DNA from: Pseudomonadota bacterium
Lineage (GTDB): Bacteria; Pseudomonadota; Alphaproteobacteria; Rhodobacterales; Rhodobacteraceae
NCBI GenBank assembly: GCA_038531775.1
Contig: JBCBBI010000016.1
Span: forward strand, 8,662 to 72,661
DNA: 64,000 bases
Direction: 5' to 3'
The notes below the pieces were generated by a model. The model was given only the letters and a program-made list of their open reading frames with translations. It was not told where the DNA came from and did not search any database. The translations under genes and the position numbers were made by a program. Shown in pieces: positions 3,495 through 18,154 of this stretch (the first letter of the stretch is position 1; the number at the start of each line of letters is the position of its first letter).

Positions 3495-4412
3495 TTAGGC
3501 GTCAGGTTTGGCCTGGTTACTATACATCACGACTACCCGCTCCATTTCTTCCATGACCTTGATCATGCTGTGAAACTTATGGGTCTCTTCTTCAAGCGTC
3601 ACCTCTTTACCGCTTATGAGTTTGTTCATCTCTGGTTTAACTTCTAGCCAAAGCTGCTCAACTTTTTCTAGACCATTCGAAATCTCTTTGGTTGGTGGGG
3701 CTTTGATGCCAGCGCTCGGCATGCCATGGCGCAAAGCCTCAAGAGAAGCTTCAAAAATACCGATATCCTGAGTCAGTTTTTCTATGGTGTCTGGCTGTTC
3801 ATGATGACTAGCCAGCATGCAGGCTTCTTTAGAAATCCTTTGTGCTAACATACGCTGGCGACTGGCAATCTTAATTATCATCGCATCGGCTTGCACCATC
3901 TCCGCAGGATTTGCGTACTGGCCGGAAATTTCTGTCAAAAGCGCGTCTGCCGCTATCAGAACGGAACCATTTGTTTCAAGCACTGAATTCAAGTCAGCTT
4001 CGTTGACATTGCCCGAAGCAAAAGACAGTGCCGGTTTTTTCAACGGTGCCCAAGCCTCTTTGACAGATGCGATTTTAGCAAGGGTCTTGCGTCTTTCCTC
4101 TGCACCAAGGATGTTGAGATTTGTATCTCCATGCTCCAATGCAGTGAGTATGACGTCAAACTCTTTAATGGAAGCATCTACCATAGCGGCCGTTGTTTTG
4201 GCTTCGACGCCTTCAGCCATATGACAAGCTGATGCGGCGATACTTTGTGATAGCATTCGCAACTTGCTGGAGAATTTAATCCGCTCCTGCGCGCCTACAT
4301 CTTCAATCAAGTTAATTTGCTGTACGTCAGCGTCTTCCGCCAAAGCGGATGTGGACAAACCAAAAAACCCAGTAACAACTAGTACCAACAGACTTTTGGT
4401 CTTGAGATACAT
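3495..4412 (-). CDS. Secreted protein with two tandem NarX/PilJ-like (MCP N-terminal) four-helix domains, paralog A
   Basis: Signal peptide; two P-box-like motifs (KFSSKLRMLSQ, KIASRQRMLAQ); no TM or signalling domain; ATG 4412 chosen by alignment with paralog B. Confidence 0.75.
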   Translation of the reverse strand: MYLKTKSLLVLVVTGFFGLSTSALAEDADVQQINLIEDVGAQERIKFSSKLRMLSQSIAASACHMAEGVEAKTTAAMVDASIKEFDVILTALEHGDTNLNILGAEERRKTLAKIASVKEAWAPLKKPALSFASGNVNEADLNSVLETNGSVLIAADALLTEISGQYANPAEMVQADAMIIKIASRQRMLAQRISKEACMLASHHEQPDTIEKLTQDIGIFEASLEALRHGMPSAGIKAPPTKEISNGLEKVEQLWLEVKPEMNKLISGKEVTLEEETHKFHSMIKVMEEMERVVVMYSNQAKPDA

Positions 4413-4438
4413 GGGATTGATCCTTTTCAATCTTTCAG

Positions 4439-5347
4439 TTAGGTTTCGTTTTTCGCGTATTTTGCGTACATGCCTACGACTTTGTTCATTTCTGACATGA
4501 CAACGTTCAGTTGGTTAAACTTCTGCGTCTCCTCTTCAATTGTGACCTTTTCACCGGACAGCAGTTTTTCCATTTCAGGTTTCACACTTTTCCAGCTGTT
4601 GTAGACGACCTCCAGTTCAGCTTTTATCGCTGCGGTTGGCGGTGCCATAATACCCGCGCCGGGCAAACCGTTGCGAAGGGCGTTCAAAGATGCTTCGAAG
4701 ATTCCGATGTCTTTTCGCATCTTCTCCAGCGCTTCAGAATTTGCTTTGCCACTGTTCAACATACATGCTTCTTTAGAAATCCGCTGTGTCAGCATCCGTT
4801 GGCGACCAGCGATGTCGAGCAGAACTGCATTCGCTTGAACGATCTCCGCAGGATTGGAATACTGACCAACAATGGCGGGAACCAGCTCTACGGCAGCGCC
4901 CAAAAGTGACAGGTTTCCTTCGAGAATCGTATTCAGATTAGTCTCAGAGATATCTCCAGACGCCATTGAAATTGCTGCGTCCCTCAAAGGGGTCCATTCT
5001 TCTTTTACGGCGTCGATTTTTACAATCGTTTTGCGTCTGGTTTCGGCACCCATGATATTGAGGCTTTCATCGCCAAATTCCAGGGCCGCGAGAATTTTAT
5101 CAAATTCCTTTGTAGAAGCATCAAGCATGGCCATGGTTGCTTCCTTATCAACACCTTCTGCAAGATGGCACGCGGAGGAAGCAATGCGCTGCGACAGCAT
5201 GCGAAGTTTTCCGGAGAAGTTGATGCGTTCCTGTGCACCCGTGTCTTCGACCAGGCTAGCTTTTTGAACAGATCCGTCCTGTGCCATAGCGAATGAGGAC
5301 AAACTAGTCGCCAAAACAACGGCGAGGCTTACTGGTTTAATATACAT
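4439..5347 (-). CDS. Secreted protein with two tandem NarX/PilJ-like domains, paralog B
   Basis: Signal peptide (AFAMA-Q); INFSGKLRMLSQR and IAGRQRMLTQR motifs; full-length similarity to paralog A. Confidence 0.8.
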   Translation of the reverse strand: MYIKPVSLAVVLATSLSSFAMAQDGSVQKASLVEDTGAQERINFSGKLRMLSQRIASSACHLAEGVDKEATMAMLDASTKEFDKILAALEFGDESLNIMGAETRRKTIVKIDAVKEEWTPLRDAAISMASGDISETNLNTILEGNLSLLGAAVELVPAIVGQYSNPAEIVQANAVLLDIAGRQRMLTQRISKEACMLNSGKANSEALEKMRKDIGIFEASLNALRNGLPGAGIMAPPTAAIKAELEVVYNSWKSVKPEMEKLLSGEKVTIEEETQKFNQLNVVMSEMNKVVGMYAKYAKNET

Positions 5348-5371
5348 TTGGCAGTTCCTTCACTGGTAAAC

Positions 5372-5399
5372 ACGGCCGGGTCTGTAACAGATTGGCCGT
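5372..5399. other. Stem-loop in the leader of paralog B
   Basis: ACGGCC-GG-GTCTGT-A-ACAGAT-T-GGCCGT, 25-50 bp upstream of ATG 5347. Confidence 0.4.
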
Positions 5400-5564: not shown

Positions 5565-5572
5565 CGTAATTT

Positions 5573-7174
5573 TTAAGATTCTTGGTTTCCGTTGGAAATC
5601 CAAACTTCAACCCGGCGGTTGATGGAGCGACCTTGGTCGGTCACGTTACATGCCGATGGAGAAAGCTCACCGTAGCCCTTGGCTTCCATCTGGATGTGAT
5701 CGAGACGGCCCTGCGCAGCAGAACGGATTTCGAACATCAGAGTGTCAGCGCGGTTTTGCGACAGCTGACGGTTGCCTTCGAAAGCACCCACATCATCGGT
5801 AAAGCCAACAAATGTGATCTTGGTGTCTTTTTCAGCTCGCTCCAGGTAGGAGATCAAACGCGACACGTCGAGACGACCACGCTCATCAAGCTTGGAAGAC
5901 CCTGTGTTGAAGCGGAAAGTTGTGGACAAACGATCGTTGTTGCCCAAGTCTTTCAGCATTGCTTCCACCAGCTTCTCTTCAAAGCCTACATCGTAGCCAG
6001 CGAGTTGCCCTTGTAGAGCAACCTTGCGGTTTTCGATACTTTCAGGGGTGCTGCGGATGATGCCGAGATCGATAAAGCCCGATTTCGCGATCACACCGTC
6101 TGCCAGCTCTGATTTTGCAAATTCGACAAGGTCTTTGGTTGGTTTGTCGAAGTTGTCAGAACGAGAGTACAGGTAAAGACGACGGCTAAGGTCGTATTCC
6201 TCTGTCTTGGCCGAGAACGCGTCTGGGCTCACAGTGATTCCACACTCGTTAACCAGCGTCATGGCTTTTGTACCACGCTGGAACGCGTAGCCAACGTAAC
6301 CGATAGAGTAACGGTCGAAGAAAACGGTGTTGGATACACCTTGATCATCGTTGGCAATAGCTTGAGCCAAAAATGGTGAGTTTTCGCCTTCAAAAAGGTA
6401 GTTCATGAAGTATGCATGGCTTGAAGAACCCGCATCACGTGCAACGACGTTGATTGGGAAATCATTACCGCCGACCTGGCTCCAGTTTCTGATTTCACCA
6501 GAGAAAATGGCACGCAGTTGCTCTTTGGTGAGTTGCTTAACTGGGTTGGAAGGGTGTGTAACCACAACCACGTTGTCAATCGCCAGGATGCTTTCCTGTT
6601 GCGGGCTAACCATGTTGCCTGCGCCATCTGCCCGAAGGGCACGAGCCTCGTCGCGCGTGATGCGGCGCGAAGACATACCGATCTGTGCAGAACCATCAAG
6701 CAGCGATGCAAACGCACCGTCGTCAGAAGTAGTCGATACCAGGTAAGAACCCATTTCGTCGCCAAAACCGCCATCCGCGAACAATGTCGCGATGGATTGA
6801 CCTTCTGATACGTTGTTGACTTCAACATCTGCGTCGACGGACGTCGCAAAGCCAGTCATCAGAAGCGGCATCATGCCAAGACCGATCGTGGCAGAACCTG
6901 CGATCGTAACGTCTGCTGTTGTGGTTTCTAGGGAAGGACAGCCAGGGCCCTCACAACGAACGCGAGCCGCGCTGACGCGCATGTCGCCGAGAGCAGTACG
7001 AATGATGTACACGCCTTCTTCTAGAGCGATAAATTCGCCATTAATGTTGACGGTGCCGTCTGCCGATTTCAAAGAAACGTCGTTGGCCACCGCTGCGGTG
7101 GAAAACAACATTCCCGCTGCTACCGCAGCACTCGCCACCGAAGTTTTGAGATGAGTTTTAAATCTTGTTTGCAT
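5573..7174 (-). CDS. PstS-like periplasmic binding protein fused to a C-terminal OmpA-like peptidoglycan-binding domain
   Basis: Signal peptide; TIAGSAT, IGMSSR, SIGYVG, LSRRLYLY (PBP); FRFNTGS, GFTDDVG, LSQNRA, NRRVE (OmpA). Confidence 0.85.
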   Translation of the reverse strand: MQTRFKTHLKTSVASAAVAAGMLFSTAAVANDVSLKSADGTVNINGEFIALEEGVYIIRTALGDMRVSAARVRCEGPGCPSLETTTADVTIAGSATIGLGMMPLLMTGFATSVDADVEVNNVSEGQSIATLFADGGFGDEMGSYLVSTTSDDGAFASLLDGSAQIGMSSRRITRDEARALRADGAGNMVSPQQESILAIDNVVVVTHPSNPVKQLTKEQLRAIFSGEIRNWSQVGGNDFPINVVARDAGSSSHAYFMNYLFEGENSPFLAQAIANDDQGVSNTVFFDRYSIGYVGYAFQRGTKAMTLVNECGITVSPDAFSAKTEEYDLSRRLYLYSRSDNFDKPTKDLVEFAKSELADGVIAKSGFIDLGIIRSTPESIENRKVALQGQLAGYDVGFEEKLVEAMLKDLGNNDRLSTTFRFNTGSSKLDERGRLDVSRLISYLERAEKDTKITFVGFTDDVGAFEGNRQLSQNRADTLMFEIRSAAQGRLDHIQMEAKGYGELSPSACNVTDQGRSINRRVEVWISNGNQES

Positions 7175-7585: not shown

Positions 7586-8359
7586 TCAGATACGGCCAAA
7601 TGCTGACGCAATCGTAGTCAAGGTATCAGGTTTTGCCGCGTAAATTGCTGTGCTTTGGTCGAAATAAAGCAAAACGCTCAGTAGATCCTCAGGCAGCAGT
7701 CCTTCGAGGACCATCATCCTGTAATCGCTGTCGACAAGTTTGATTTCGGATAGGTTTTTGCCAATCTCTCCGAATTTGTCCAACACTTCGGTTTTTAGAA
7801 GTAAAACCGTGGCAGGATCACCGCCTTCGCCCAAAATGGCCTCGTCACCAATCTCGATGCTAGCGATGCAATCATCGCCAAGAAACGCTTGAAATTGTTC
7901 TGCCAAACTTGGCGGAGCGGTGTCCAAATCCACATCCCATAATTCGGCCAATTTGCCAGGCGAAATACCAGCATCCGATTGCGCGGCAGCCTCAGGATCA
8001 AGGTTTCGGAGCAGCATAAGGGAACCGTCTTTGGCAACCAGGGAGACCAGCATCTCGCCAACTGTTTTAACTGCCTCTTCATCTTCCAACGAAAGGGTCT
8101 GCCCAAACACCTGCGAGTTCTGTGCCAAATCCTCTGTTGCGCTCGCGCAGGATCGCAAACGGCGGCCTACCACGCTTAGAGATACACGTGATGTACCCAC
8201 CGAAACATCAATGATCCTAGGCAAAATCGTGTTGTCTATAGCGCGAAGGATACCGGCCAAACCGATCTCAACATTCGACGAGATCAGTTTCATCGCACCG
8301 TTTTTGAAATCACCGGAGTCTGTAAGGTCCTTCAATTTGCGCTCGACATCATCGACCAT
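7586..8359 (-). CDS. Hypothetical protein; C-terminal part is Roadblock/profilin-like (inferred)
   Basis: 257-aa ORF starting 2 bp after the upstream gene; C-terminal alpha-beta-beta-alpha-beta-beta-beta-alpha pattern by eye. Confidence 0.65.
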   Translation of the reverse strand: MVDDVERKLKDLTDSGDFKNGAMKLISSNVEIGLAGILRAIDNTILPRIIDVSVGTSRVSLSVVGRRLRSCASATEDLAQNSQVFGQTLSLEDEEAVKTVGEMLVSLVAKDGSLMLLRNLDPEAAAQSDAGISPGKLAELWDVDLDTAPPSLAEQFQAFLGDDCIASIEIGDEAILGEGGDPATVLLLKTEVLDKFGEIGKNLSEIKLVDSDYRMMVLEGLLPEDLLSVLLYFDQSTAIYAAKPDTLTTIASAFGRI

Positions 8360-8361
8360 CG

Positions 8362-8694
8362 TCAGTCACCAGTACTAATCGCGGACAAACAGTCTTTGGC
8401 TGCGGGTATAAGCTCTTTGATTTCTGTATCGACCGCACAAATGCAGCACAAGACATCTGTCGGTTCGATTTCAGAGCGCAAAAACAGCTTTAGCCGATCC
8501 TTCGTCGTAACCATTGCAGTCGTTCCACCTTCAAGCAAGAAGCTTGCCTCGCGACACATCGCATTTAGGAAGTCTTGGCTTTCGGGAGACGCCGCGTTTT
8601 TTAGAAGAACCATGCGCGTGCTCACATCAATAAAGGCGAGCGTTTCACAGCCCGCAATCTTTTCGCATAGTTCGTCTAGTGTTTGTTGACCCAT
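8362..8694 (-). CDS. Small Roadblock/LC7 (MglB)-like protein (inferred fold)
   Basis: 110 aa; apparent element order: helix, ETLAFID, MVLL, helix, AMVTT, LKLFLR, VLCCIC, helix. Confidence 0.65.
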   Translation of the reverse strand: MGQQTLDELCEKIAGCETLAFIDVSTRMVLLKNAASPESQDFLNAMCREASFLLEGGTTAMVTTKDRLKLFLRSEIEPTDVLCCICAVDTEIKELIPAAKDCLSAISTGD

Positions 8695-8799
8695 CGACCG
8701 ACCAAAACTCTAACTCACGTTATTGGGTTAAGGCAATCATTGGTCGAATGGAAGCCATGTCGCGCCAAATTTTCTGCGGTGTAGCAGCAGGACCTTGGG

Positions 8800-9843
8800 T
8801 CAGCCGCCCTCACTGCCAAAAACTGAGCGTAACTGATCTGGATCGGTCGTCTGCTTTGGGCTGGTCGGGAATGGAGGGGCCATACTCTCACCGGTCTGTC
8901 TGGATCCGCGAGGCCTTTCTGATCTGGCAAGCGCACCGGCAGGGCGCACGCGACGCGGCATCACTTTCGATGAAATTTCATCGATATTCTCTGAGTCACC
9001 TACGCTGTCACTTTCATTTTGAGCCGCTTGGGCGTGTTCCTCTTTGAACTCGCCGTCATGGTCCTGAGATTTTCCAGCTTCCTGTTTCGTCTGTGCGGAT
9101 GTTTCGGAGGCGTCAACAGAGTTCGTTCCGACGGCAGACTGATAAATCGAGGTGTCCATGTGCTCCACGGTTTCGCCAAGATCACCAACCATTGTAATCA
9201 AATGCTCGAGGAACGCGCCACCGCCGCTTGCATTGAAAGCATCATAATCTTCTCCCGCTTCCAACGCCTGCGTCAGCGAAATCGGAAAGGTAGCCGCAAA
9301 TTTTCCTGCGACTTCTTTGCGTAGACGCGACAAAACACGCGCTCTATCCCGCTCCGTTTTGAGCTTGTCAAAGCGCGTTATAAGTAGGACGGACCGTTCG
9401 CGCACAGCATCCGGCATTGTGTCCCAAACCGCTGCTTCCGACTGCCGCCAGGCTTGCGTGGCATGGGTGCACCAAAGCACGGCATCAACTTCTGTAAGAA
9501 CGCGCTGCCAGACTTCTGAAGACATATTCGGGTCCGAAATGCCTGGAAAATCGATCATATCACAGACTTGCAGCACATCAGCTTCGAAAAACACGCGAAT
9601 GACGCGGGTTGTGTCCAGATCAATGCTCTCCAGATCAGACAGATCAACTGGTTCTTCGTTTCCGTTAAGGTCAATGCGAAAGGGCTCTTGGTTACCATGC
9701 GCCATCCAAACAGGCGACAGACGCGTTGCAGTAACTTTTTCAGGCAAAGGGCGGGCACCGAGCAAGAGATTGGAAAGCGTGCTTTTGCCAGCGCTGAATT
9801 CACCCATCAAAGCAATGCGGGGCTTACGTGTTCCCTCAGTCAT
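8800..9843 (-). CDS. Dynamin-like GTPase (short: G-domain plus low-complexity tail)
   Basis: G1 GEFSAGKS, G2 VTAT, G3 DFPG, G4 TRFD; ATGA overlap with the upstream gene. Confidence 0.85.
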   Translation of the reverse strand: MTEGTRKPRIALMGEFSAGKSTLSNLLLGARPLPEKVTATRLSPVWMAHGNQEPFRIDLNGNEEPVDLSDLESIDLDTTRVIRVFFEADVLQVCDMIDFPGISDPNMSSEVWQRVLTEVDAVLWCTHATQAWRQSEAAVWDTMPDAVRERSVLLITRFDKLKTERDRARVLSRLRKEVAGKFAATFPISLTQALEAGEDYDAFNASGGGAFLEHLITMVGDLGETVEHMDTSIYQSAVGTNSVDASETSAQTKQEAGKSQDHDGEFKEEHAQAAQNESDSVGDSENIDEISSKVMPRRVRPAGALARSERPRGSRQTGESMAPPFPTSPKQTTDPDQLRSVFGSEGG

Positions 9844-12008
9844 GCTGCAGTCCCTTCATCTTCCATGTCTTGCGTTTTGGCTACTGGGCGCGTCGGCCTA
9901 GCTGGTCTTCCGGAAGGTTCATCGTCTGCGTCCGCTTCTGCTTCGAGCTCGCCATCTAGAGAAAACTCCTCGAAAAGGATCTCGAACAAGGACTCCCGCT
10001 CTTCTTGTTGAGTAATGCCAAAAAGATCCTTGAGCTCTTTGGTCGAGATTTGCGACTTATGGCTCACATCGGTGAGGATGCCACTTTGCTCTCCAAGAAA
10101 CTCGTCATATTCATCAAGGGCAATCTGGCGAATTTCCTGCACCTGACCGTTTTTTAGGTCGTTAATAATCGGCATGGTTTCAGCTTCGATCAGCTCATAG
10201 AAAGCATCGGCATAAGCGCGATAACCTTTACGACGCTGCCACCAACCTTTCCACCAAGACGTCTGAAGATCGAGCGCAATGGTCTGGCCAAGCGTCACAG
10301 GCGGTGGAAATTCCGGGGCAGATGGCGGCAAAACCTTGAACCCATCAACCTCTGCTGAAAGCAGGCTGAGATAAGTTTTGGTTAGCTCATCAGTAACGCC
10401 ACCAAATACGCTGTCACAGGTACCTGCAACCGACTTTCGCATTGATTGATAGCTGGAACGCAAAAGGATGCGCAAACCGTCAGGAGAATACTGCCAAAGT
10501 TCGTTTTCGCCCTTGGTTTCTAGGTGTTGAATGAGCGACTCTAGAGCGCGACTGATAAAGCGCTTATGCGCCTGATCAATGCGTTTGGAGTAGTTTTCAA
10601 TCAGCGCGTCGAGTTGCTTTTCGAGAGTGGCACGGAAGCTGTCTTCCAACGCATCCAGATGTTTACCAAGCGTCTCGGGATCGACCACTTTCAATGCCTG
10701 GTTACTCATGCGAAGTGATACGATTGAGCTTGACGCTTTAAGGCCTTGTAGATGGTTCATCGCACGTTTGCGTATCGTGTTGAGCATCGTTGTGCCCTCA
10801 CCCTCCGCAATACGCTCGCCGATCTTGTCAAAAAGTGTTGGAAGGCCCGAATGGTCCCAGACTTGCTCGGCACTTAGCTCGGATTTACCGACGCCAGAGT
10901 AGTTTTGCAGGGCGGCCGCACTATCAGGGTCAAGATCATCGATCTGTTCTTGCAACGCCATGTTGGCCCAATAAGCGGAGCCAAATACGACTTCTAGATC
11001 ATCCGGACAGTTGTTATTGGCCAAAGTGCTGAGGATGGAGGTTCTGATTTCCTCAATCTCATCTTTGGGGTTGGCCAACTCGTCAATACGATTGACAAAG
11101 ATCACAACCTCACGGGATTTCACATTGGAAATCAACCGTATAAGACCCATGTCCATTGAGCTTAGCGCTTGCGTTGCCGAAAGGACCACAACGCAAATGC
11201 GGCTTCCACGTAAAGCATTAATGGTAATCTGCTCTCGCATCATGAAGGTATCGTTGACGCCTGGTGTATCGCGAATGCAAAGCGCATGAGGCAATGACGG
11301 CGCATCAATATAAAGATCGGCTGACTTTGTGATGTCGGCGAACTGACCTTGTGCATCCTGTGCATCTTCGTCTTCGAAATCGTCGCCCATACAGACGTAA
11401 CGCTGAATCAAATCATCATCGAGGTGGCGATAATTATGCGTTTGGCCGAGTAGCAATTCAAACTTGCGCCCAAGGCGAGCTTTTGTCTTTTCGCGCATCT
11501 CTGCGATTTGCTCACGCACTTTTTCAAGTTCGTCGGAAGCACCGGCACGGCTCGAAAGTTCACCAATGCGGCCACCATTTTCGACCAGGTGATCCCACTC
11601 GGACGGATCAAAAAACTGAAACGAGGCGATCGTTCCCTCGTCATTTACCTTAGTATTCAAATGCAATGAGGTCACAACGGATGTCCATGGGTTCACATCC
11701 GCAGGCAACAGGTCAGGGCGACCAGACATTGCATTTACAAGAGATGTCTTGCCCGACTTAATTTGGCCAATCATTGTAATGGACGGCTCAAACGCCTCCA
11801 TAGCATCGATCAGCTTATGTGACTTCTTTGATGCATTCTGACCACCGAGGCTTTCAATGTCCAAAAGCGCTTCGCGCATATCGGACATTTCCTGATGAAA
11901 CTCTTCCATTCGCTCAAGGCCGTTGCGCGCAAAATCCGGACTGAATGAACGAGCCGTCTGCGCGGTTGCAGCGGCGTCGCCCTCTATCTCGCTGTTTTCA
12001 ATATTCAT
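9840..12008 (-). CDS. Dynamin-like GTPase (full length, with helical stalk)
   Basis: G1 GQIKSGKT, G2 PWTSVVT, G3 DTPG, G4 NRID; long helical C-terminal half with SWWKGWWQRRKG. Confidence 0.88.
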   Translation of the reverse strand: MNIENSEIEGDAAATAQTARSFSPDFARNGLERMEEFHQEMSDMREALLDIESLGGQNASKKSHKLIDAMEAFEPSITMIGQIKSGKTSLVNAMSGRPDLLPADVNPWTSVVTSLHLNTKVNDEGTIASFQFFDPSEWDHLVENGGRIGELSSRAGASDELEKVREQIAEMREKTKARLGRKFELLLGQTHNYRHLDDDLIQRYVCMGDDFEDEDAQDAQGQFADITKSADLYIDAPSLPHALCIRDTPGVNDTFMMREQITINALRGSRICVVVLSATQALSSMDMGLIRLISNVKSREVVIFVNRIDELANPKDEIEEIRTSILSTLANNNCPDDLEVVFGSAYWANMALQEQIDDLDPDSAAALQNYSGVGKSELSAEQVWDHSGLPTLFDKIGERIAEGEGTTMLNTIRKRAMNHLQGLKASSSIVSLRMSNQALKVVDPETLGKHLDALEDSFRATLEKQLDALIENYSKRIDQAHKRFISRALESLIQHLETKGENELWQYSPDGLRILLRSSYQSMRKSVAGTCDSVFGGVTDELTKTYLSLLSAEVDGFKVLPPSAPEFPPPVTLGQTIALDLQTSWWKGWWQRRKGYRAYADAFYELIEAETMPIINDLKNGQVQEIRQIALDEYDEFLGEQSGILTDVSHKSQISTKELKDLFGITQQEERESLFEILFEEFSLDGELEAEADADDEPSGRPARPTRPVAKTQDMEDEGTAA

Positions 12009-12184
12009 CAACCCACTCTAGCCTTCGAATTAAGCCTCGTTTTTCGCTCTTTTAGAAACTGTCTAGGGACATTCACGGCGCTGTTCACGTTTTGAGTAGT
12101 AAAACCGCCAGTTCCGAGCATTTTTGTGGCATCAATTTGATTAAATTTCGAAGAACCCCAACCACGCATATTCTGCAAATACCC

Positions 12185-13744
12185 TTACGCAGCCAAACTT
12201 GTCTGCATCTCTTGCTTGACCTGCACCATCAGAGTCAGCGCATCGGAAGCCACGCTATCACCCGGCTCAAGCTGTATTAGTTGGATAACGTCAGCAGCAT
12301 CCATAGCGATATCACAGCATTTCTGGTAATGATGGTCGCCCTGATCACCATTACTTGTCAGATATTCCGCGACCCATGACACAGTATCGACACAGGTTTC
12401 GATAATTGCCCCGTCATCAAGCTCACCAGCGATCTGCTTTTCAAGCAAAACACCTCCTTCTGCACCCAACTGGTCAACAACTTGTTTGATCAAATCCCAT
12501 GACGCAGGCTGCAAACTTTCGACTTGCACAACCTCGGGCTCGTTGTTGGCATCCGTTTCCGTTGAAGATTCCGGCTCCGTGTTCTCTTCTATGTCCCGTT
12601 CAGGCTGGTCGTTAGGCTCGGCGCCAGTCTCGCTTGTTGCGTCCGAAGCAACTTCGGTACCTGTTTTTGGCTCTTCCGCCTCGGCTGATTCAACCAAGGC
12701 ATCTGTCGTATTCACTTGTTGAGCGTCGTTCTGCTTTTGCTCTTCCGCATTTGCATCAGTCTCTGGTTCTTGCTCAACTTTTCCAGACGTGTCTGAAGAA
12801 GGTTCTTCCTCAAGAGCACGTTCGACCGCTGCCAGAACTTCATTTTGAGGTGCAGCTGTCGGAGTTTGCTTGCTTTCGAGAGTCGCTTTTTTCGTATTGC
12901 CTGCAACTTCTGCTGACGGCGTAAGGTCAATCTGCCGCAGGAATACGTCCGCCTGATCAATACCGTGCTGGCGACCAGCCTCAACGTCTCTTAGGATCGA
13001 CGAAATCAGCGCGACCGCACCAGAGCTTTTCATTGTCTCTTTGTCGACAGTGCCATCAGGATTGCGCGCGGCAATTGCCGTTTTTGTACCGACGGGAAGG
13101 ACTTTTCTGAAAAAATCTTGGCCATTTGCTTCGGCTTCCGAAAGCCGTTGTCGCAATTCAGATTGTGAGCTGTGTGCATCTGTCTTTGTAACGACTAGAA
13201 ACGAGTGGTCATCGAGCTTTTCTGGAACCAAGTCCCAAAGATCTTGCTCAGCCTCTCCAAATTGACCACTTGTGCACCAAAGCGCGATGTCGATTTTTTT
13301 CGAAGCCCACTGGATAGCACGCTGCTGTTCTTCCTGGCTATCACCTGCGACCACTTCCATCATCGAAAGCTTGGTGAGCGCTGGCAAAGGCAGGCGCGCT
13401 TCGACGAACGCCGGGCTAAGCATGGACACTTCGCGCATGTCCTCACCTTCAACCGTCAATTGCGTGCGATCACCTAAGGTGCAAACCGCTTCGGCTTTAT
13501 CGCCGTGTACCAGTTGGATCGTCGGCAACCTAAAATGCTCAGGCAAAACCTCTTTGCCCAACAGCAAGTTCATTATCGCCGACTTCCCGCTTCCTGGAAG
13601 TCCGAAAACACCAAGCCTGAAAGGGCGCTCAATGCGTTGCAAAAGTCCTTTGGCACGCTGCTGCAGCTGTTCCGAAAGATTTTGCGATGCAATGACATCC
13701 TTCAGGTCTTTTAGAGTAGAAGGAATTTCCTCTTGGATTGTCAT
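12185..13744 (-). CDS. Dynamin-like protein with degenerate GTPase motifs
   Basis: G1 GLPGSGKS and G4 TKTD present; G2 Thr and G3 DxxG not recognisable (MMEVVAG); acidic linker; TAATG overlap with the PP2C stop. Confidence 0.75.
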   Translation of the reverse strand: MTIQEEIPSTLKDLKDVIASQNLSEQLQQRAKGLLQRIERPFRLGVFGLPGSGKSAIMNLLLGKEVLPEHFRLPTIQLVHGDKAEAVCTLGDRTQLTVEGEDMREVSMLSPAFVEARLPLPALTKLSMMEVVAGDSQEEQQRAIQWASKKIDIALWCTSGQFGEAEQDLWDLVPEKLDDHSFLVVTKTDAHSSQSELRQRLSEAEANGQDFFRKVLPVGTKTAIAARNPDGTVDKETMKSSGAVALISSILRDVEAGRQHGIDQADVFLRQIDLTPSAEVAGNTKKATLESKQTPTAAPQNEVLAAVERALEEEPSSDTSGKVEQEPETDANAEEQKQNDAQQVNTTDALVESAEAEEPKTGTEVASDATSETGAEPNDQPERDIEENTEPESSTETDANNEPEVVQVESLQPASWDLIKQVVDQLGAEGGVLLEKQIAGELDDGAIIETCVDTVSWVAEYLTSNGDQGDHHYQKCCDIAMDAADVIQLIQLEPGDSVASDALTLMVQVKQEMQTSLAA

Positions 13745-14787
13745 TATTTCTTACCAGCGGATACCTTTGCAGGTGGTTCTTCTTCAGGCGCGGCTTCAGG
13801 CACAGCGTTTTTTTTCGCTTTAGAGCTAGACCCTTTGGTACCGGATTTCTTGCCAGGCTTTGCATCGGACTTGTTGGCCGATTTGAATGCGATCACATCC
13901 TTTTTCGCCTCATCAAGCTGAATAACGCGCGTAACCGTTGAAGTCTTGGTCTCCATTGCATCGATAGGCTTCGGCTCTATCACCCGCTCCATCGGCTTGT
14001 TATGATTGAGCTTTAACACAGCAAAGGAAATATTATCCTGATCGGGATCTGCCAGCGCCTCAATCGCTTCCAATAGATGCCCCGCGATCTCAGCTGATTT
14101 GCGTCGGCGATACCGATGCAAAATCTTTTGGATTTTAGGTTCTTCGAGATATTGAAGGCCATCGCTGGAAACGACCACAATGTCGCCGACCTTAATTTCC
14201 GTCGGCGTCGAAGGGCAATCAGACTTTGCCACCCTGTCACCCAAAATCACGGATGTCAGACAGTTTCGGTCCGGATGGTTTTTAGCCGCTTCCTTATCAA
14301 GCAAACCTTGCTGAACCATAAAGTCGATTTGCGGCGCCATAGAATGATCTTCATTAAGCTGCTGCAGTTTTCCGCCACGCAGTAAGTAAAGCGGGCTGTC
14401 ACCAATCGACATCCAGAACATCCGGTTTTCAACCATGATGACCGACACCAAAGTGGCACCCATACCTCGAACCTTCGGGTTCTTTTTCACATGCGCTTTT
14501 ACAGCAGAATTAGCTTTTGAGGCTGCTACAGCCATAAAATCGGGAATTTCTTTCTCTTTCCGAACGAAATTCGCACTTTGGAATTTCAACTCGGCGAAAA
14601 CCTTAGTCACGACCAGTTTGGACGCGACGTCACCTGCAGCATGGCCACCCATGCCATCGGCAAGAACGATCAGGCCAGTGTCAGCACCAAACGGAAAATC
14701 CGTGGTTATCGCATCTTCCTGGTAGTCGCGGCCACCCTGACACAGGGCTGATGCAACATCAAATCTTGGTTCAGGCGATCGCCACAT
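13744..14787 (-). CDS. PP2C/PPM-family Ser/Thr phosphatase
   Basis: RDYQED, ADGMGGH, GATL, GDSP, DHS, SSDGL, DNIS; ATG 14787 overlaps the 3' end of the FHA gene. Confidence 0.92.
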   Translation of the reverse strand: MWRSPEPRFDVASALCQGGRDYQEDAITTDFPFGADTGLIVLADGMGGHAAGDVASKLVVTKVFAELKFQSANFVRKEKEIPDFMAVAASKANSAVKAHVKKNPKVRGMGATLVSVIMVENRMFWMSIGDSPLYLLRGGKLQQLNEDHSMAPQIDFMVQQGLLDKEAAKNHPDRNCLTSVILGDRVAKSDCPSTPTEIKVGDIVVVSSDGLQYLEEPKIQKILHRYRRRKSAEIAGHLLEAIEALADPDQDNISFAVLKLNHNKPMERVIEPKPIDAMETKTSTVTRVIQLDEAKKDVIAFKSANKSDAKPGKKSGTKGSSSKAKKNAVPEAAPEEEPPAKVSAGKK

Positions 14788-15625
14788 CGTCTTGCTCCTC
14801 CGGGCCTTCGTTCTCATCTGTCCAGTTGAATTCGGCTGTGCAGAGCGGAACGAAACGCAGGGTTGTTTCCCCTACCTTGATTTCATCGCCTGCTTTGATC
14901 TCTTCGTTGGAAATCACAGGTTTGCCGTTCAACCGAACGACGTTTTTCTTGCCACCGTGACCGATGTAGAATGCGTGGGTGTCTTGGTCGTAAACAATGG
15001 CTGCGTGATTGACACGCGACACGCTATTATCTCCGAAATCAAGGCGGATTGTCTGATCCTCGCCACGACCGATCTGCGACATGCCGGCTTCAAGAGAGAA
15101 GCACTCGCCTCTTCCTGGTCCGTGGGACACCGCGATAAAACCAACTGGGAACTTCACCCGCGAGGTTGGTTCCATTTTCTCAGCCTTATCGAAGGCGGAG
15201 ACAATGCTGTCTTCATTGCTGTCATCAAAACCAAGCAACCGCGTTTGGTTGCGACGGCGACGGCGCCGCTTTGGCTCTTCCTGTGGGAATACATCTGCCG
15301 GCTCATCGTCCTCGTCGAGATCCCAGATGTTGACGGCGGACTCGTCGGTCGGTTCCTCCATCGTATTGATCTTGTCCAAGATCGCGTCCTGAGCGTCGCT
15401 TTCTGACTGCCTCGCAGCAGCCTCAGATGCCCCGTCGGATGCCGAATCTCCAGCTACGACCTGAAGGCTCGATGTCGTTTGCGGCGCGGGCGCATCACCA
15501 AAGCCACTTGGCATTTCGATTTCAGGCTTCTTAGCTTTTCTGACTGAAACCAAATCCTCTAAACGCTCTGCGGGTTCCAACTGCTCGGATTGCTTGCGGG
15601 AAAGTAGATCTTTTATGAACTTCAT
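14771..15625 (-). CDS. FHA-domain protein with disordered acidic N-terminal region
   Basis: FHA signature IGR...VSRVNH...NG in the C-terminal third. Confidence 0.88.
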   Translation of the reverse strand: MKFIKDLLSRKQSEQLEPAERLEDLVSVRKAKKPEIEMPSGFGDAPAPQTTSSLQVVAGDSASDGASEAAARQSESDAQDAILDKINTMEEPTDESAVNIWDLDEDDEPADVFPQEEPKRRRRRRNQTRLLGFDDSNEDSIVSAFDKAEKMEPTSRVKFPVGFIAVSHGPGRGECFSLEAGMSQIGRGEDQTIRLDFGDNSVSRVNHAAIVYDQDTHAFYIGHGGKKNVVRLNGKPVISNEEIKAGDEIKVGETTLRFVPLCTAEFNWTDENEGPEEQDDVAIA

Positions 15626-15658
15626 TACTTGCCTCTATTTTTATGAACTGCAGTTACG

Positions 15659-18154
15659 TTATCCAGCATCGCCCGAGTAAGTCAGCGAGACGACCCAAGT
15701 CGATCCATCGCGTGATACGGCAAAACTGAACTGTTCTTGTCCATTGGCCAACTCACGTTCGAAGATATCCTTGATTGTGGTACGGCCTTCAATTTTCTCA
15801 GACGTAGACATCAATGCGATGACCTGGTCACCAACTTGGAAGTTGTTTTCGCCACCGGCACTTTCAGTCACGTAGGTTTTCCAGACATCGTCTTCAAAGC
15901 GAGTGCTGAATTGCGTACCGTTAAGGAGGGCTGTTCCCTGAACAATCGGGATGTTCCACTCTTGCTCCGTGGCTGTACCGCCATTTGCGGGTTCAACAGT
16001 GAATTCCACTTTTTGCAGAGCGCCGCCACTTGGCTCAACTGTAGAGCGCAGGATGCCCTGAATATCGGAGATCTGGTTCACAGGCTCGCCATTTACCGCA
16101 ACAATCCGGTTTCCGGCAACGGCCCAAGCCGGCGCCGCAGTGTCAACGTCTTCGATAACGTTGCTACCGAAACTTCCAGAAAAAGGAAGTTCAATGGACC
16201 AGTTGGATAGCACACCTGCGGCCTCTGCCGGCGCTGAGCTTGGTGCAGCTGCAGGTGTTTTTTCATCCTGGTTGCTGACCGCTGCTACGACCTGTTGCTC
16301 TGGCTTGTCCGTTTCGCTTGCCGCAGTGTTTTGATCAGCTTCTTCACGCTGTCTCAAAATATCAGCAAACGTCTGGGCTGCAGGAGCTTGTTCTTCAACT
16401 TTTTCCCGTTGGGCTGCAATGTTGGCAGAAATTTCAAGCAGGCGCGCGGCCTTCTTTTCGTTTTCCGTAAGCTCAACAGGTTGCTCTTCGCTAACCTGTG
16501 TTTCCTTTTCAGCCGCATCTGCTGCGGCTTGACGCTCAGCCTCTTCTTTCGCTGCTTTTTCTGCAGCAAGGCGTTGCGCTTCGCGCTCGGCTGCGGCGAT
16601 CGCTGCTAAACGAGCCGCCTCTTCTTCGGCTGCTTTCGCCGCCGCCAACTCTGCCTCGCGTTGTGCAGCCGCTTCGGCGGCTGCTGCCTCTGCAAGGCGC
16701 GCTTCTTCAGCTTCACGCTCTGCCTTTGCCGAAGCTTCAGCTGCTGCAATTTCCGCCAAGCGTGCTGCTTCAGCTTCCTCGGCGGCGCGTTCAGCTGCTA
16801 GCTTGTCAAGACGGGCGGCCTCTTCATCAGCGGCTCGCTCAGCTGCAAGGGCCGCCAGACGCGCCGCCTCTTCTTCAGCTGCTTTTGCTGCGGCTAGGTC
16901 CGCTTCACGCTGAGCGGCTCTCTCTGCTGCCGCAGCCTCTGCAAGACGCGCCGCTTCGGCTTCTTGCTGTGCTTTTGCTGCTGCAGCCTCCGCTTCACGC
17001 TGGGCAATCTGCTCAGCACTATCTTGAGCGGGCGCGCTGGCTTGTTGGACGGGTTCTTCTTCCGATCCACCAAATGTACCCATAGCAAACATGCCGCCGA
17101 CGGCCAGAACTGCTACTGCAGCAACCGAGCCGAAAAGAACAGCGTTCGATGACTTCTTTTCCGACGCTGCGGTTTCGACAGCGGCAGACGACATAACAAC
17201 CGGGGATGTGACGACACGGGATTTACGGCGCGAGCCGTCAATCATCTCGAGCCATTCTTTAGCTGATTGAATACGGTCCTTTGGAACAATTTCCATCGCC
17301 ATATCGATCGCGGCAAGGAACTTCTTGTCGAAGCCTTTGACATTGTCAGAAAGCGGAACGTAAGGATCGTCTTCGCTTGCAGCAATAGCGGCGAGACGCG
17401 CTTGGCTGTTGGCGGGGATTTCTCCAGAGATCAGATGATAGAACGTTGCCGCAAGGGCATACAAATCACTTGAAGGCGTCTGAGTGCTGCCCTGAACATA
17501 AAATTCCTGTGGTGAGTAGCCGTCTTTGACAACGCGAAGCGCCGAAAGGACCCGGCTCTTCTTTGTTGCTTCCTCCCGCGCAGCACCAAAATCGATCAAA
17601 ACCGGGCGCAAGTCTTCGTCCAAGAGGATGTTATCTGGAGAGATATCGCGGTGCAGGATGTCTTGATCATGGATATAAGAGACCGCGCCAAGCACGTCTT
17701 TGAGAATACCTTTGATCTGTGGCGCGGTAAGTGTCTTTGCTGAATCTTCTAGTGTGTCGAGCAGATCACTACCTTCTACGAAATCCAGTACCATGTAGGC
17801 GGTAGAATTGTCTTCGAACACCTGGTGCACACCAACGATGTTTGGATGCTCCAGTTTGGCCAAGCTTCTGGCCTCTTGGACGAACAAGTCCACAACCGAT
17901 TTCAGTTCTTTCGTGTGGGCACGCGAACGAGGTGACACGATGGCACGAGACCGATGACAGAATGACGATGGGAAGCATTCCTTGATCACGACACGACGGT
18001 CCAAACTGTCGCGCGCTAGGTACGTGATCCCGAAACCACCGGAGTTCAGGAACTTCTCAATGGTGAATTGTCCCTGAAGGAGTTCCGTCCCGGGTGCCAG
18101 TTCATCGACGAAGCTTTCGTCATCTTTTGCTTGCTTTTTTTGTGCGTTGCCCAT
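15659..18154 (-). CDS. Hanks-type Ser/Thr protein kinase, single TM, Ala/Glu-rich stalk, PDZ-like C-terminus
   Basis: SGGFGITY, VIKE, HPNIV, HRDISPDN, DFG, YSPQE, SDLYALA; TM VLFGSVAAVAVLAVGGMFAM; GNRIVAVNGEPV and VGDQVIAL are PDZ-like. Confidence 0.92.
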   Translation of the reverse strand: MGNAQKKQAKDDESFVDELAPGTELLQGQFTIEKFLNSGGFGITYLARDSLDRRVVIKECFPSSFCHRSRAIVSPRSRAHTKELKSVVDLFVQEARSLAKLEHPNIVGVHQVFEDNSTAYMVLDFVEGSDLLDTLEDSAKTLTAPQIKGILKDVLGAVSYIHDQDILHRDISPDNILLDEDLRPVLIDFGAAREEATKKSRVLSALRVVKDGYSPQEFYVQGSTQTPSSDLYALAATFYHLISGEIPANSQARLAAIAASEDDPYVPLSDNVKGFDKKFLAAIDMAMEIVPKDRIQSAKEWLEMIDGSRRKSRVVTSPVVMSSAAVETAASEKKSSNAVLFGSVAAVAVLAVGGMFAMGTFGGSEEEPVQQASAPAQDSAEQIAQREAEAAAAKAQQEAEAARLAEAAAAERAAQREADLAAAKAAEEEAARLAALAAERAADEEAARLDKLAAERAAEEAEAARLAEIAAAEASAKAEREAEEARLAEAAAAEAAAQREAELAAAKAAEEEAARLAAIAAAEREAQRLAAEKAAKEEAERQAAADAAEKETQVSEEQPVELTENEKKAARLLEISANIAAQREKVEEQAPAAQTFADILRQREEADQNTAASETDKPEQQVVAAVSNQDEKTPAAAPSSAPAEAAGVLSNWSIELPFSGSFGSNVIEDVDTAAPAWAVAGNRIVAVNGEPVNQISDIQGILRSTVEPSGGALQKVEFTVEPANGGTATEQEWNIPIVQGTALLNGTQFSTRFEDDVWKTYVTESAGGENNFQVGDQVIALMSTSEKIEGRTTIKDIFERELANGQEQFSFAVSRDGSTWVVSLTYSGDAG
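16601..16951 (-). repeat. Internal 34-aa duplication in the kinase stalk
   Basis: ARLAEAAAAE(R/A)AAQREA(D/E)LAAAKAAEEEAARLAA at 16850-16951 and 16601-16702. Confidence 0.85.

Follow-up and report, generated by a model that had tools for sequence, protein, structure and literature searches.

The window analyzed here, a stretch of 64,000 nucleotides from a Rhodobacteraceae contig, carries eleven open reading frames between positions 3495 and 18154, all in the same orientation on the minus strand. Their coordinates, together with Pfam and NCBIfam searches, bore out the eleven co-oriented genes and the domains proposed in an earlier sequence-only reading of this DNA, and the tight junctions it had listed matched as well. 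Base 13744 was common to the stop codon of the PP2C phosphatase gene and the start of the gene for the dynamin-like protein DLPa (TAATG), the DLPb and DLPc genes overlapped by 4 nt (ATGA, 9840 to 9843), and the genes for the two Roadblock proteins, Rb1 and Rb2, were separated by 2 nt (8360 to 8361). The FHA and PP2C genes overlapped by 47 nt, or by 17 nt with a PP2C start at the conserved Met11 (14787), which is likely the true one. The DLPa-DLPb spacer measured 173 nt in the window, with a median of 161 nt, and spacers between DLPc and Rb1 were typically about 82 nt; both could carry internal promoters, and there could therefore be up to three transcription units. A search of RNA sequencing runs returned none containing this DNA or that of Yoonia vestfoldensis. 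Alignment of the DLPa-DLPb spacer from 76 loci revealed a conserved non-coding motif, AATCAAATTGATGCCACA (12125 to 12142, minus strand), a candidate internal promoter or operator, which occurred as a single copy in the window, was exact in L001 to L004, and was found as a variant in other loci. The GC content of the module was in line with that of its flanks, the neighbors in the window were housekeeping genes (cobD, DUF599, MATE), and no mobile elements were seen among these neighbors in Pfam searches.

The first three genes encode a set of the kind that writes, reads, and erases phospho-Thr marks. The kinase (15659 to 18154, minus strand; 831 aa) is a receptor-type Hanks Ser/Thr kinase (STK; Pfam Pkinase, 116 bits, 2.5e-33) and the only membrane-integral protein of the module, with an N-terminal cytoplasmic kinase domain in which the catalytic motifs VIKE, HRD, DFG, and SPQE are readable, a transmembrane helix at residues 338 to 356, an Ala/Glu-rich linker that is hypervariable, and, at the C terminus, some 180 aa that are conserved. 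Among orthologs, the kinase-domain columns were over 90% conserved, the linker varied, and the C terminus was again conserved. This extracytoplasmic region gave a weak PDZ_6 match (Pfam), which recurred below threshold in 19 of 23 orthologs. Profile searching related it to the PDZ domains of DegP and RseP with an E value of about 0.02; it may have tandem PDZ-like character, an assignment lying below Pfam thresholds. The FHA-domain protein (14771 to 15625, minus strand; 284 aa) matched Pfam FHA (1.6e-8) with 35.3 bits, above the cut-off of 20.7. It has a disordered acidic N-terminal half, a conserved basic patch (R.RR..TRL.GF) containing the invariant Thr127, the FHA core, and an invariant C-terminal DVAIA, and its weak NCBIfam matches were to FhaB/FipA (1.7e-8), OdhI, and the gliding protein GltG. 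The PP2C-type Ser/Thr phosphatase (13744 to 14817, minus strand; Pfam PP2C_2, 47 bits, 3.5e-12) is soluble, retains the metal-binding motifs DGMGGH, SSDGL, and DQDN, and is the best-conserved protein of the cluster (orthologs 62 to 81% identical). Against the NCBIfam Stp1/IreP model it reached 154.6 bits, under the equivalog cut-off of 230.

Three genes had been read as encoding dynamin-like proteins, and this held in full for DLPb, the sole full-length member at the locus, whereas DLPa and DLPc proved to be truncated G-domain paralogs. DLPb (9840 to 12011, minus strand; 722 to 723 aa, with 12008 as the likely ATG start) matched Dynamin_N (Pfam, 50 bits, 4.9e-13) and has intact G1 to G4 motifs (GQIKSGKTS, DTPGVND, NRID). 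At residues 585 to 597, the ortholog alignment showed an invariant Trp-rich basic motif, SWWKGWWxRRKGY, which is a candidate membrane paddle. The DLPb family comprised 367 clusters at 50% identity (E ≤ 1e-30). DLPc (8800 to 9843, minus strand; Dynamin_N, 43 bits, 7.5e-11) has a G domain only (residues 1 to 230), followed by a disordered tail with a conserved PRRV motif, and judged by its motifs (GEFSAGKST, DFPGISDPN, TRFDK) it appears to be a catalytically intact DLP2-type G-domain protein. DLPa (12185 to 13744, minus strand), already called degenerate in the sequence-only reading, indeed gave just weak P-loop GTPase matches in Pfam; in alignments its P-loop was mostly retained, TKxD was retained, and LEVVA stood in place of DxxG. 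Beyond its G domain lie a variable Pro/Ala/Glu-rich linker and a C-terminal domain, helical and about 125 aa long, for which searches of PDB and Pfam returned no match. DLPa and DLPc are paralogs (hhalign probability 99.5%, E of 6e-23). By profile search, the closest solved structures were Campylobacter jejuni DLP1 (5owv_A, 1.6e-10) and Nostoc BDLP (2j68, 2.7e-5) for DLPb, and the G domain of C. jejuni DLP2 for both DLPa (3e-11) and DLPc (3e-14).

Neither of the two small proteins that follow had a family match in Pfam/NCBIfam sequence searches; the suggestion that they form a Roadblock pair was supported by structure prediction, strongly for Rb1 and with weak matches for Rb2. The AlphaFold2 model of Rb1 (s110; 8362 to 8694, minus strand; 110 aa, single domain, pLDDT 89.7) had top Foldseek PDB matches with TMq values of 0.75 to 0.80 and E values of 8e-6 to 3e-4, among them the Roadblock/LC7 protein 3kye, MglB (1j3w and 6hjm), MglC (7ct3), LAMTOR2, and the RagC C-terminal domain. 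Some Rb1 orthologs carry the UniRef name "Roadblock/LAMTOR2 domain-containing," and the predicted Roadblock fold of Rb1 is clear from the model. Rb2 (s257; 7586 to 8359, minus strand; 257 aa, pLDDT 83) was modeled as two tandem Roadblock/longin-like modules, each alpha-beta-beta-alpha-beta-beta-beta-alpha, and its Foldseek matches were weak (E ≥ 5e-3) and all from the longin/Roadblock superfamily (Fuzzy-Inturned, Mon1-Ccz1, LAMTOR4/5, dynein LC7, and Rag C-terminal domains).

Three further genes of the same orientation encode secreted proteins: a periplasmic protein that has a signal peptide and joins a PstS-like binding domain to a peptidoglycan-binding domain of the OmpA type (5573 to 7174, minus strand; PBP_like_2, 6e-28; OmpA, 6e-8), and two paralogous PilJ/NarX-type proteins of 302 and 311 aa (3495 to 5347, minus strand; 4439 to 5347 and 3495 to 4430, respectively). 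Both paralogs have signal peptides and two stretches matching PF13675 (2.6e-30 and 3.2e-26), i.e., two four-helix-bundle sensor domains per protein and no output domain. The sequence-only reading had counted these ligand binders as part of a trans-envelope system, which our survey did not sustain. In the window, a 411-bp AT-rich spacer parts the PstS-OmpA gene, which probably has its own promoter, from the module. Of 80 loci, 17 had PstS-OmpA or PilJ-type genes beside the module (PstS-OmpA in 14, on the 5' side in Marivita; PilJ-type genes in 9), and in Yoonia and Loktanella an unrelated hydrolase took their place. These genes lie outside the conserved unit, and a trans-envelope module is therefore a lineage-specific elaboration at best; the proteins are optional periplasmic add-ons of some lineages.

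The remaining eight genes (STK-FHA-PP2C-DLPa-DLPb-DLPc-Rb1-Rb2) form the core order. Counting species-level Rhodobacteraceae genomes with enough flanking sequence, the upstream half was collinear in 64 of 66 and the downstream half in all 73 (73/73 for Rb2 being reached using HMMs), and such loci spanned Litoreibacter, Yoonia, Loktanella, Marivita, Cognatiyoonia, Aliishimia, Aestuariibius, and Albidovulum. Because the gene order recurs to this extent, the eight-gene arrangement far exceeds chance. Synteny of the kinase, FHA, and PP2C genes with the dynamins, on which the sequence-only reading had staked its proposal, was thus kept, and the overlaps were conserved: FHA and PP2C overlapped in 64 of 64 loci, the PP2C/DLPa junction ranged from -4 to +8 nt in the same number, and the DLPb/DLPc gap was at most 10 nt in 67 of 77 (median, -4; ATGA). 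The chromosomal site of the module was stable within genera, with a GAPDH-like gene upstream in 39 Yoonia/Loktanella loci. In two species, the kinase and PP2C genes were eroded and DLPb-DLPc-Rb1-Rb2 was intact.

More distant relatives showed these parts in other combinations. The complete eight-gene order was found in L083 and L088 with a short, soluble kinase, and L084, a differently built locus, held STK-PP2C-DLPb by itself; in all three, orthologous kinase and PP2C genes adjoined a DLPb relative. L081 and L085 combined the long and short DLP and a Roadblock pair with a PTP-type phosphatase replacing STK/PP2C, and in these two and L091 the Roadblock genes lay upstream of the DLP pair, i.e., in a different order. 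A coupled short DLP followed the long one in 9 of 10 distant relatives, and DLPa was confined to loci having the FHA/STK/PP2C set. Several relatives were without any phospho-enzyme, and there were distant relatives in which the long and short DLP pair stood alone. The design is, therefore, nested: at its core is the DLP pair, which is frequently joined by a Roadblock pair, and the accompanying phospho-enzymes differ between loci (STK/FHA/PP2C, STK/PP2C, or a PTP-type phosphatase). Since the associations are rearranged in distant relatives, the link between kinase and DLPs is more than inherited gene order; and since kinase and PP2C are eroded in two species and absent from several relatives, the DLP engine is not strictly kinase-dependent.

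We consider it somewhat probable (about 0.55) that the eight genes are a single conserved functional module of Roseobacter-group Rhodobacteraceae, combining a bacterial dynamin pair with eukaryote-like regulators that would work as follows. With its PDZ-like domain, the kinase would detect a cue from the envelope or periplasm, and it would then phosphorylate Thr residues. Candidate targets are Thr127 in the FHA protein, as with GarA/OdhI, or else the disordered linkers in DLPa and DLPc. These marks would be read by the FHA protein and erased by PP2C, and the phospho-state would be relayed via DLPa, as a pseudo-GTPase, and via a platform formed by a Roadblock heterodimer, the latter acting as a GAP/GEF-like regulator of, or a scaffold for, the short GTPases. 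The relayed state could then decide DLPb-DLPc assembly and GTP cycling at the cytoplasmic membrane, which DLPb would probably contact through its Trp-rich basic motif, with membrane tethering, fusion, or repair as output. The function would accordingly be phospho-regulated inner-membrane remodeling, probably tied to envelope sensing. Dynamin-family GTPases do not normally need a GAP or GEF, and the proposed role of the Roadblock proteins is therefore unprecedented. The sequence-only reading had known of no characterized locus with this combination, and our search of the literature and of defense-system models (PADLOC) likewise found no description of kinase/FHA/PP2C, dynamin, and Roadblock genes together. 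The marine Roseobacter-group cluster is thus a testable candidate for bacterial control of dynamin-type membrane remodeling.

Dynamin-like proteins and Hanks kinases are both found in known defense systems, and the module might be a kinase-armed relative of the LeoABC-type "Dynamins" system or might act in the way of Bacillus subtilis DynA; the kinase would sense infection and the DLPs would seal infected cells or delay their lysis. In PADLOC, the LeoA and LeoBC models were partially matched by DLPb and DLPc (50.9 and 30.5 bits), as were PD-T4-6 and mad6 by the kinase; the best NCBIfam match of the kinase was MADS6, far under the cut-off. However, these matches are to generic domains, and no PADLOC model matched the FHA, PP2C, DLPa, or Roadblock proteins. 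Collinearity in nearly all sampled species of the clade at sites stable within genera, the high conservation of PP2C and the kinase domain, a GC content in line with the flanks, and housekeeping neighbors free of mobile elements argue for a vertically inherited cellular function and not a defense island, which makes defense the least probable of the alternatives. Control of envelope growth, division, or polarity ranks highest among them and is still unlikely. Wall growth and division are under STK-FHA-PP2C trios in Actinobacteria (PknA/B-FhaA/B-PstP), Streptomyces DynA/DynB stabilize division rings, and MglB sets polarity; by analogy, septum or pole would be where the DLPs act, and polarity would be set by the Roadblock proteins. 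The FhaB/FipA and GltG matches of the FHA protein and the presence of the polarity factors MglB and MglC among the folds closest to Rb1 fit this idea. Yet neither the window nor the 80 loci showed a division, peptidoglycan-synthesis, or motility gene linked to the module, most Alphaproteobacteria with the same mode of division lack it, and the GTPases it contains are of the dynamin and not the MglA type.

It is also improbable, to a degree between these two, that a generic STK-FHA-PP2C signaling cassette and the DLP and Roadblock pairs have unrelated roles, are fortuitously juxtaposed, and are held together only by shared ancestry in one family. The uncoupled DLPa-DLPb (~161 nt) and DLPc-Rb1 spacers, the DLP pairs standing alone in distant relatives, and the two genomes that lost kinase and PP2C and retained the other genes would all agree with such an origin. 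Against it, PP2C shows translational coupling to DLPa, itself a DLP paralog, in 64 of 64 loci, L084 places orthologous kinase and PP2C beside a DLPb relative despite its different build, the Roadblock genes accompany the DLP pair from the upstream side in L081, L085, and L091, and the same DLP family recruits a different phosphatase class (PTP). Because the DLP/Roadblock/phospho-enzyme association recurs in rearranged form, we favor function over inertia.

Parts of this module resemble known systems. As in C. jejuni, whose DLP1/DLP2 (5owv) are with Nostoc BDLP the closest solved relatives, DLP1-type and DLP2-type genes are adjacent and coupled, but here the DLP2-type partners are reduced to the G domain and duplicated, with one degenerate; for the Campylobacter or Nostoc proteins, partners of the kinase, FHA, PP2C, or Roadblock kind are not known, and the literature search turned up none. 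LeoABC of enterotoxigenic Escherichia coli, or the "Dynamins" defense system, is likewise a three-gene dynamin cluster with one DLP split or truncated. The module differs in that its weak PADLOC matches extend over just a part of the models, a LeoC-like stalk-only protein is missing, regulators absent from LeoABC are present, and it behaves in genomes as a core locus passed on vertically. With PpkA-Fha1-PppA of the T6SS and mycobacterial PknB-FhaA/GarA-PstP it shares the trio that writes, reads, and erases, its catalytic and pThr-binding motifs being intact, as well as a kinase of the single-pass receptor type, and with the self-binding switches GarA and OdhI a conserved Thr, here in a basic patch. 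In contrast to these pathways, the attached machine is a dynamin/Roadblock set, which takes the place of a T6SS, of TCA-cycle enzymes, or of the divisome (Tss genes were not seen near the module), and the ectodomain of the kinase resembles PDZ and not vWA or PASTA domains. Roadblock genes also adjoin GTPase genes in MglA/MglB, the Streptomyces conservons (CvnA-D), and the eukaryotic Rag-Ragulator and Mon1-Ccz1, although those GTPases are of the Ras/MglA/Rag type and the neighbors here are of the dynamin family, a partnership of which we found no description in the literature. Rb1 superposed at a TM of about 0.8 on MglB, MglC, LAMTOR2, and the conservon-type Roadblock 3kye, and Rb2 resembles multi-longin/Roadblock regulators.

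The cluster consisted of 11 ORFs, every one on the minus strand, spanning 3495-18154 of the window, and plus-strand genes on either side (cobD at 2457-3392 and a DUF599 gene at 18722-19465) showed that it was delimited by strand switches. In transcription order, Pfam and NCBIfam identified a Hanks kinase of 831 aa (STK; 15659-18154), an FHA protein (14771-15625), a PP2C phosphatase (13744-14817), a 519-aa protein with weak matches only, to P-loop GTPases (DLPa; 12185-13744), two Dynamin_N proteins of 723 aa (DLPb; 9840-12011) and 347 aa (DLPc; 8800-9843), two proteins of 110 and 257 aa with no family match (Rb1, 8362-8694; Rb2, 7586-8359), a PBP_like_2 and OmpA fusion (PstS/OmpA; 5573-7174), and two proteins with two PilJ/NarX-type domains apiece (PilJ genes; within 3495-5347). 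The eleven co-oriented genes and their domains, as described in the sequence-only reading, were thereby confirmed. The coordinates also confirmed the coupled junctions it had listed: base 13744 is common to PP2C and DLPa (TAATG), the four bases ATGA at 9840-9843 belong to both DLPb and DLPc, the FHA and PP2C genes overlap, and a gap of 2 nt separates Rb1 from Rb2. Among the cluster's proteins, a transmembrane helix was found in the kinase only (residues 338 to 356), while the last three carried signal peptides. The GC content of the cluster equaled that of its flanks. No Rfam family reached threshold anywhere in the 64-kb window, and a promoter and terminator scan gave sites no more numerous than in shuffled sequence.

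More than 1800 close homologs of DLPb were found, and all that were named came from Rhodobacteraceae. Scanning one genome per GTDB species gave 490 species with a DLPb relative, and the best 80 of these 490 loci were fetched with 10-kb flanks and searched by tblastn and HMM. The nearest loci belonged to Litoreibacter MAGs (73% identity), which placed the window in the Roseobacter group. Among the best 80, the STK, FHA, PP2C, and DLPa genes lay upstream of DLPb in 64 of the 66 loci with enough flank, and DLPc, Rb1, and Rb2 lay downstream of it in 73/73, with gene order and strand identical throughout; the kinase, FHA, and PP2C genes were thus syntenic with the dynamins in other genomes as well. 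The FHA and PP2C genes overlapped in 64/64 loci, and the PP2C/DLPa junction measured -4 to +8 nt in all 64. DLPb and DLPc were separated by 10 nt or less in 67 of 77 loci, with a median of -4, i.e., the ATGA overlap, as expected of an adjacent and presumably co-expressed DLP gene pair. True spacers were found between DLPa and DLPb (median 161 nt) and between DLPc and Rb1 (median 82 nt). In the window, the former (12012-12184) contains a conserved noncoding motif, AATCAAATTGATGCCACA (12125-12142, minus strand), which was exact in four of the fetched loci (L001 to L004) and recognizable as variants in the others; it might serve DLPb-DLPc-Rb1-Rb2 as an internal promoter or operator.

The two exceptions to the upstream order, L069 and L080, were eroded loci in which DLPb-DLPc-Rb1-Rb2 was intact. 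In L069 (7352-8632), the kinase was cut to 140 aa and PP2C to an 80-aa remnant, and in L080 (9102-9845), a deletion had left a chimeric ORF made of an FHA fragment and the C-terminus of DLPa. An initial impression from tblastn, that Rb2 had been lost together with the kinase in these two loci, was rejected when the HMM search found Rb2 in both. Several hundred marine species share the conserved module of eight genes from STK to Rb2. None of the RNA runs searched contained the DLPb gene of the window or that of Yoonia vestfoldensis, and among the sequencing data searched the locus was held in marine and plastisphere DNA metagenomes only.

An exhaustive profile search extended the family to 367 clusters at 50% identity, mostly full-length DLPb relatives (E ≤ 1e-30). 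We read the contexts of ten of these distant relatives, with checks by HMM and hhalign, and a long and a short DLP were paired in nine of them. The complete eight-gene order was present in L083 and L088, with a short kinase that had no ectodomain, and L084 had orthologous STK, PP2C, and DLPb only. In L081/L082, L085, and L091, a Roadblock gene and a gene for 240 to 278 aa lay upstream of the DLP pair, and PTP-type phosphatases took the place of STK and PP2C in L081, where an ABC-ATPase::PTP (CX5R) fusion (8571-10004) shares 4 nt with the start of the DLP gene, and in L085, where a PTP-like (CX5R) gene (9673-10491) adjoins. L086 combined the DLP pair with a 117-aa gene, and L087, L089, and L090 had the long and short DLPs alone. 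DLPa was present only where the FHA/STK/PP2C set was. These comparisons gave a nested picture: the long and short DLP pair is the ancient core, the Roadblock pair a frequent addition, and phospho-enzymes of different kinds were recruited on more than one occasion. That the association recurs in rearranged form is the best argument for an action of the phospho-module and the Roadblock proteins on the DLPs.

The claim of three dynamin-like proteins stood at the family level, although in practice only DLPb is full-length. Pfam Dynamin_N matched DLPb (49.9 bits) and DLPc (42.8 bits) above its cut-off of 27, and the P-loop, DxxG, and N/T-(K/R)-x-D motifs were intact in both, as predicted for G1-G4 dynamin-type G domains. 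The solved proteins closest to the DLPb profile were Campylobacter jejuni DLP1 (5owv_A; 1.6e-10) and Nostoc BDLP (2.7e-5). DLPb has the right length for a neck/trunk and paddle, and its conserved C-terminal 400 aa hold an invariant SWWKGWWxRRKGY motif (residues 585 to 597), at a position which we take to correspond roughly to the lipid-binding paddle of BDLP, making it a candidate for that role. DLPc has a very conserved G domain of ~230 residues (GEFSAGKST, DFPGISDPN, TRFDK), followed, with no stalk, by a disordered tail whose sole conserved feature, PRRV (8800-9000, minus strand), is a candidate docking site. DLPa fell below the Dynamin_N cut-off and was tied to the family only by its paralogy with DLPc (hhalign probability 99.5%, E 6e-23, ~215 residues) and a profile match to C. 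jejuni DLP2, whose G domain was the closest solved match of both DLPa (3e-11) and DLPc (3e-14). Its P-loop is mostly kept and TKxD is kept, DxxG is replaced by LEVVA, and beyond the G domain come a Pro/Ala/Glu-rich linker, whose length varies greatly, and, at the C-terminus, a helical domain of ~125 aa that is conserved but had no relative in PDB or Pfam. Together, these features suggested one full DLP (DLPb), a truncated active partner (DLPc), and a truncated pseudo-GTPase (DLPa). The idea that DLPa and DLPc had split the functions of an ancestral short DLP found no support, as the DLPa C-terminal domain showed no relation to the C-terminal extensions of distant short DLPs. The public gene call for DLPb (P0001) is 608 aa, 84% of ORF 9840-12011 on the minus strand; orthologs were conserved from about residue 27, and aligning the starts of DLPb favored the ATG at 12008, preceded by an AGGA-like site.

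Kinase, FHA protein, and phosphatase were each above the Pfam cut-off (Pkinase 116 bits, FHA 35.3 bits, PP2C_2 46.8 bits). The kinase motifs VIKE, HRD, DFG, and SPQE were intact, the DGxGG/DG/DN motifs of PP2C were legible, and the FHA protein had the GR / SRxxH / NG signature, so that kinase and phosphatase are predicted to be catalytically competent and the FHA protein to have the residues for phosphothreonine binding. Kinase-domain columns were >90% conserved and the last ~180 residues of the protein were conserved too, while the Ala/Glu-rich segment past the membrane helix was hypervariable in length and sequence among orthologs. This linker (residues ~360 to 640; 16000-17100, minus strand) is repetitive, with AAKAAEEEAARLA-like units, and its DNA has a raised GC content (0.58) and a strong AT skew. 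The kinase C-terminus gave subthreshold PDZ matches in 19 of 23 orthologs, and its profile matched the PDZ domains of DegP and RseP (E ~0.02); with low certainty, the region may be PDZ-like. In the FHA protein, which had weak NCBIfam matches to FhaB/FipA and OdhI, Thr127 is invariant within a basic patch (R.RR..TRL.GF), and the invariant C-terminus, DVAIA (14771-14790, minus strand), is another candidate docking site. PP2C was the best-conserved protein of the cluster and probably starts at Met11.

Rb1 and Rb2 matched no family of Pfam, its Roadblock entries included, or of NCBIfam at E up to 10, profile searches of the two against PDB sequences gave noise only, and hhalign found no relation between them or of either to the DLPs. 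Their identity was resolved by structure prediction alone, with AlphaFold2 models built from homolog alignments. For Rb1, the model was confident (pLDDT 89.7), and Foldseek matched it to 3kye (Roadblock/LC7), MglB, MglC, LAMTOR2, and Rag C-terminal domains with TMq 0.75 to 0.80 and a probability of 1.00; the predicted fold is a textbook Roadblock. The Rb2 model, likewise confident (pLDDT 83), had two alpha-beta-beta-alpha-beta-beta-beta-alpha modules in succession. Its Foldseek matches were weak (E ≥ 5e-3), and the informative ones were all longin/Roadblock proteins (Fuzzy-Inturned, Mon1-Ccz1, LAMTOR4/5, dynein LC7, and Rag C-terminal domains), so Rb2 is tentatively assigned two Roadblock/longin-like modules. 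The proposed Roadblock pair was thus upheld firmly for Rb1 and more tentatively for Rb2.

The trans-envelope module that had been proposed fared differently in its two parts: the coupling of the core genes was conserved, but the ligand binders did not belong to that core, since PstS/OmpA and/or PilJ genes flanked the module in only 17 of the 80 loci (Litoreibacter-like, Aliishimia, Cognatiyoonia-like, Aestuariibius, and Marivita lineages). In the window, an AT-rich spacer of 411 bp, resembling a promoter region, separates them from the module, and the gene comparisons place them outside the core. In 22 Yoonia/Loktanella loci (among L016 to L070), an unrelated alpha/beta-hydrolase gene (~303 aa) lay directly 3' of Rb2 on the same strand, -21 to +57 nt from its end, where the window has PstS/OmpA. 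Where present, the binder genes were always co-oriented with and directly adjoining the module, and in Marivita they were on its 5' side, before the kinase. A lineage-specific functional tie, e.g., input to the kinase ectodomain, is possible. Two tandem PstS/OmpA paralogs followed the module in the Litoreibacter-like loci L003 (14722-18232), L008 (14719-18224), L005, and L006.

We give a probability of about 0.7 to the reading that the eight genes form one functionally coupled, phospho-regulated DLP/Roadblock module. The receptor kinase would sense an envelope cue; in the periplasm, PDZ domains typically recognize C-termini that unfolded envelope proteins expose. It would then phosphorylate Thr residues that the FHA protein reads, the latter possibly as a self-binding switch of the GarA/OdhI type via Thr127, and PP2C would reset the state. 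The phospho-state could be relayed via the pseudo-GTPase DLPa and the Roadblock platform to DLPc and DLPb, whose assembly on the cytoplasmic membrane would bring about its tethering, fusion, or repair. That the cue is envelope stress and the output membrane repair is a specific version that we regard as rather doubtful. MglB, Ragulator, and Mon1-Ccz1 are GAP/GEF-like Roadblock/longin regulators, and we consider it unlikely, though conceivable, that Rb1 and Rb2 would likewise be nucleotide-state regulators or scaffolds of dynamin-family GTPases, with the whole complex switched by reversible Ser/Thr phosphorylation and DLPa as a phospho-controlled adaptor. Were this the case, the Roadblock/longin principle would reach beyond Ras-like GTPases, and a membrane-remodeling circuit that follows the logic of eukaryotic endomembrane GTPase control would exist in Alphaproteobacteria, the class from which mitochondria arose.

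If the genes were independent units in merely inherited juxtaposition, neither the translational fusion of PP2C and DLPa nor the recurrence of the association in rearranged loci would be expected, and we disfavor this explanation. An anti-phage defense system is disfavored as well: its PADLOC matches were merely generic, and conservation was vertical, clade-wide, and syntenic. LeoABC resembles the locus in being a multigene, partly truncated DLP set, but the "Dynamins" (LeoABC) models gave only partial, weak matches (50.9 and 30.5 bits), and, unlike a variable defense island, the locus is vertically conserved between housekeeping flanks with no GC anomaly. Control of division or polarity is a rival reading of the output, but no division or motility gene was found linked to the module.

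Other known systems share single elements with the locus: C. jejuni DLP1/DLP2 the sequence of the pair, T6SS and mycobacterial Thr-phosphorylation pathways the write/read/erase trio, and MglA/MglB, conservons, and Rag-Ragulator the pairing of Roadblock proteins with GTPases. No tss-type family of a T6SS (PpkA-Fha1-PppA) was present among the window ORFs scanned, and the conserved neighbor clusters examined in related loci were GAPDH-like, ABC-transporter, hydrolase, PstS/OmpA, and similar genes. In contrast to the MglA, CvnD, and Rag systems, the only GTPases of the cluster are dynamin-family; no MglA-like gene was found in the window's module or among those neighbor clusters. As a system, the locus belongs to none of these: it lacks tss genes and an MglA-like GTPase, and nothing in it matched at the level of LeoA/LeoBC. 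No paper linking bacterial dynamins with Roadblock proteins or an STK/FHA/PP2C set was found in the full-text literature searched, whose coverage is incomplete, in agreement with the sequence-only reading, which knew of no characterized locus with this combination. What the locus presents is a pair of bacterial dynamins with two regulatory layers for which we found no earlier description.

To our knowledge, no upstream regulator has been established for any bacterial dynamin-like protein, and what switches most of them on, and for what purpose, is as far as we know still largely open. The locus offers a hypothesis with handles (kinase, phosphatase, FHA reader, pseudo-GTPase, and two Roadblock proteins) and is directly testable in cultured carriers, which include Y. 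vestfoldensis, Y. maritima, Marivita hallyeonensis, and Roseobacter sp. CCS2. Bacteria of the carrier clade abound on algae, plastics, and marine particles, so that a conserved, envelope-linked switch of membrane remodeling could matter for life on surfaces, the release of vesicles, or survival of phage attack at sea. The remainder of the window (24273-64000) was ordinary Roseobacter chromosome, with a TRAP DctM fusion (24273-26486), two subtilases (27926-29095 and 60278-61759), the C-P lyase gene PhnI (41082-42170), and an RND pump (55367-58510).
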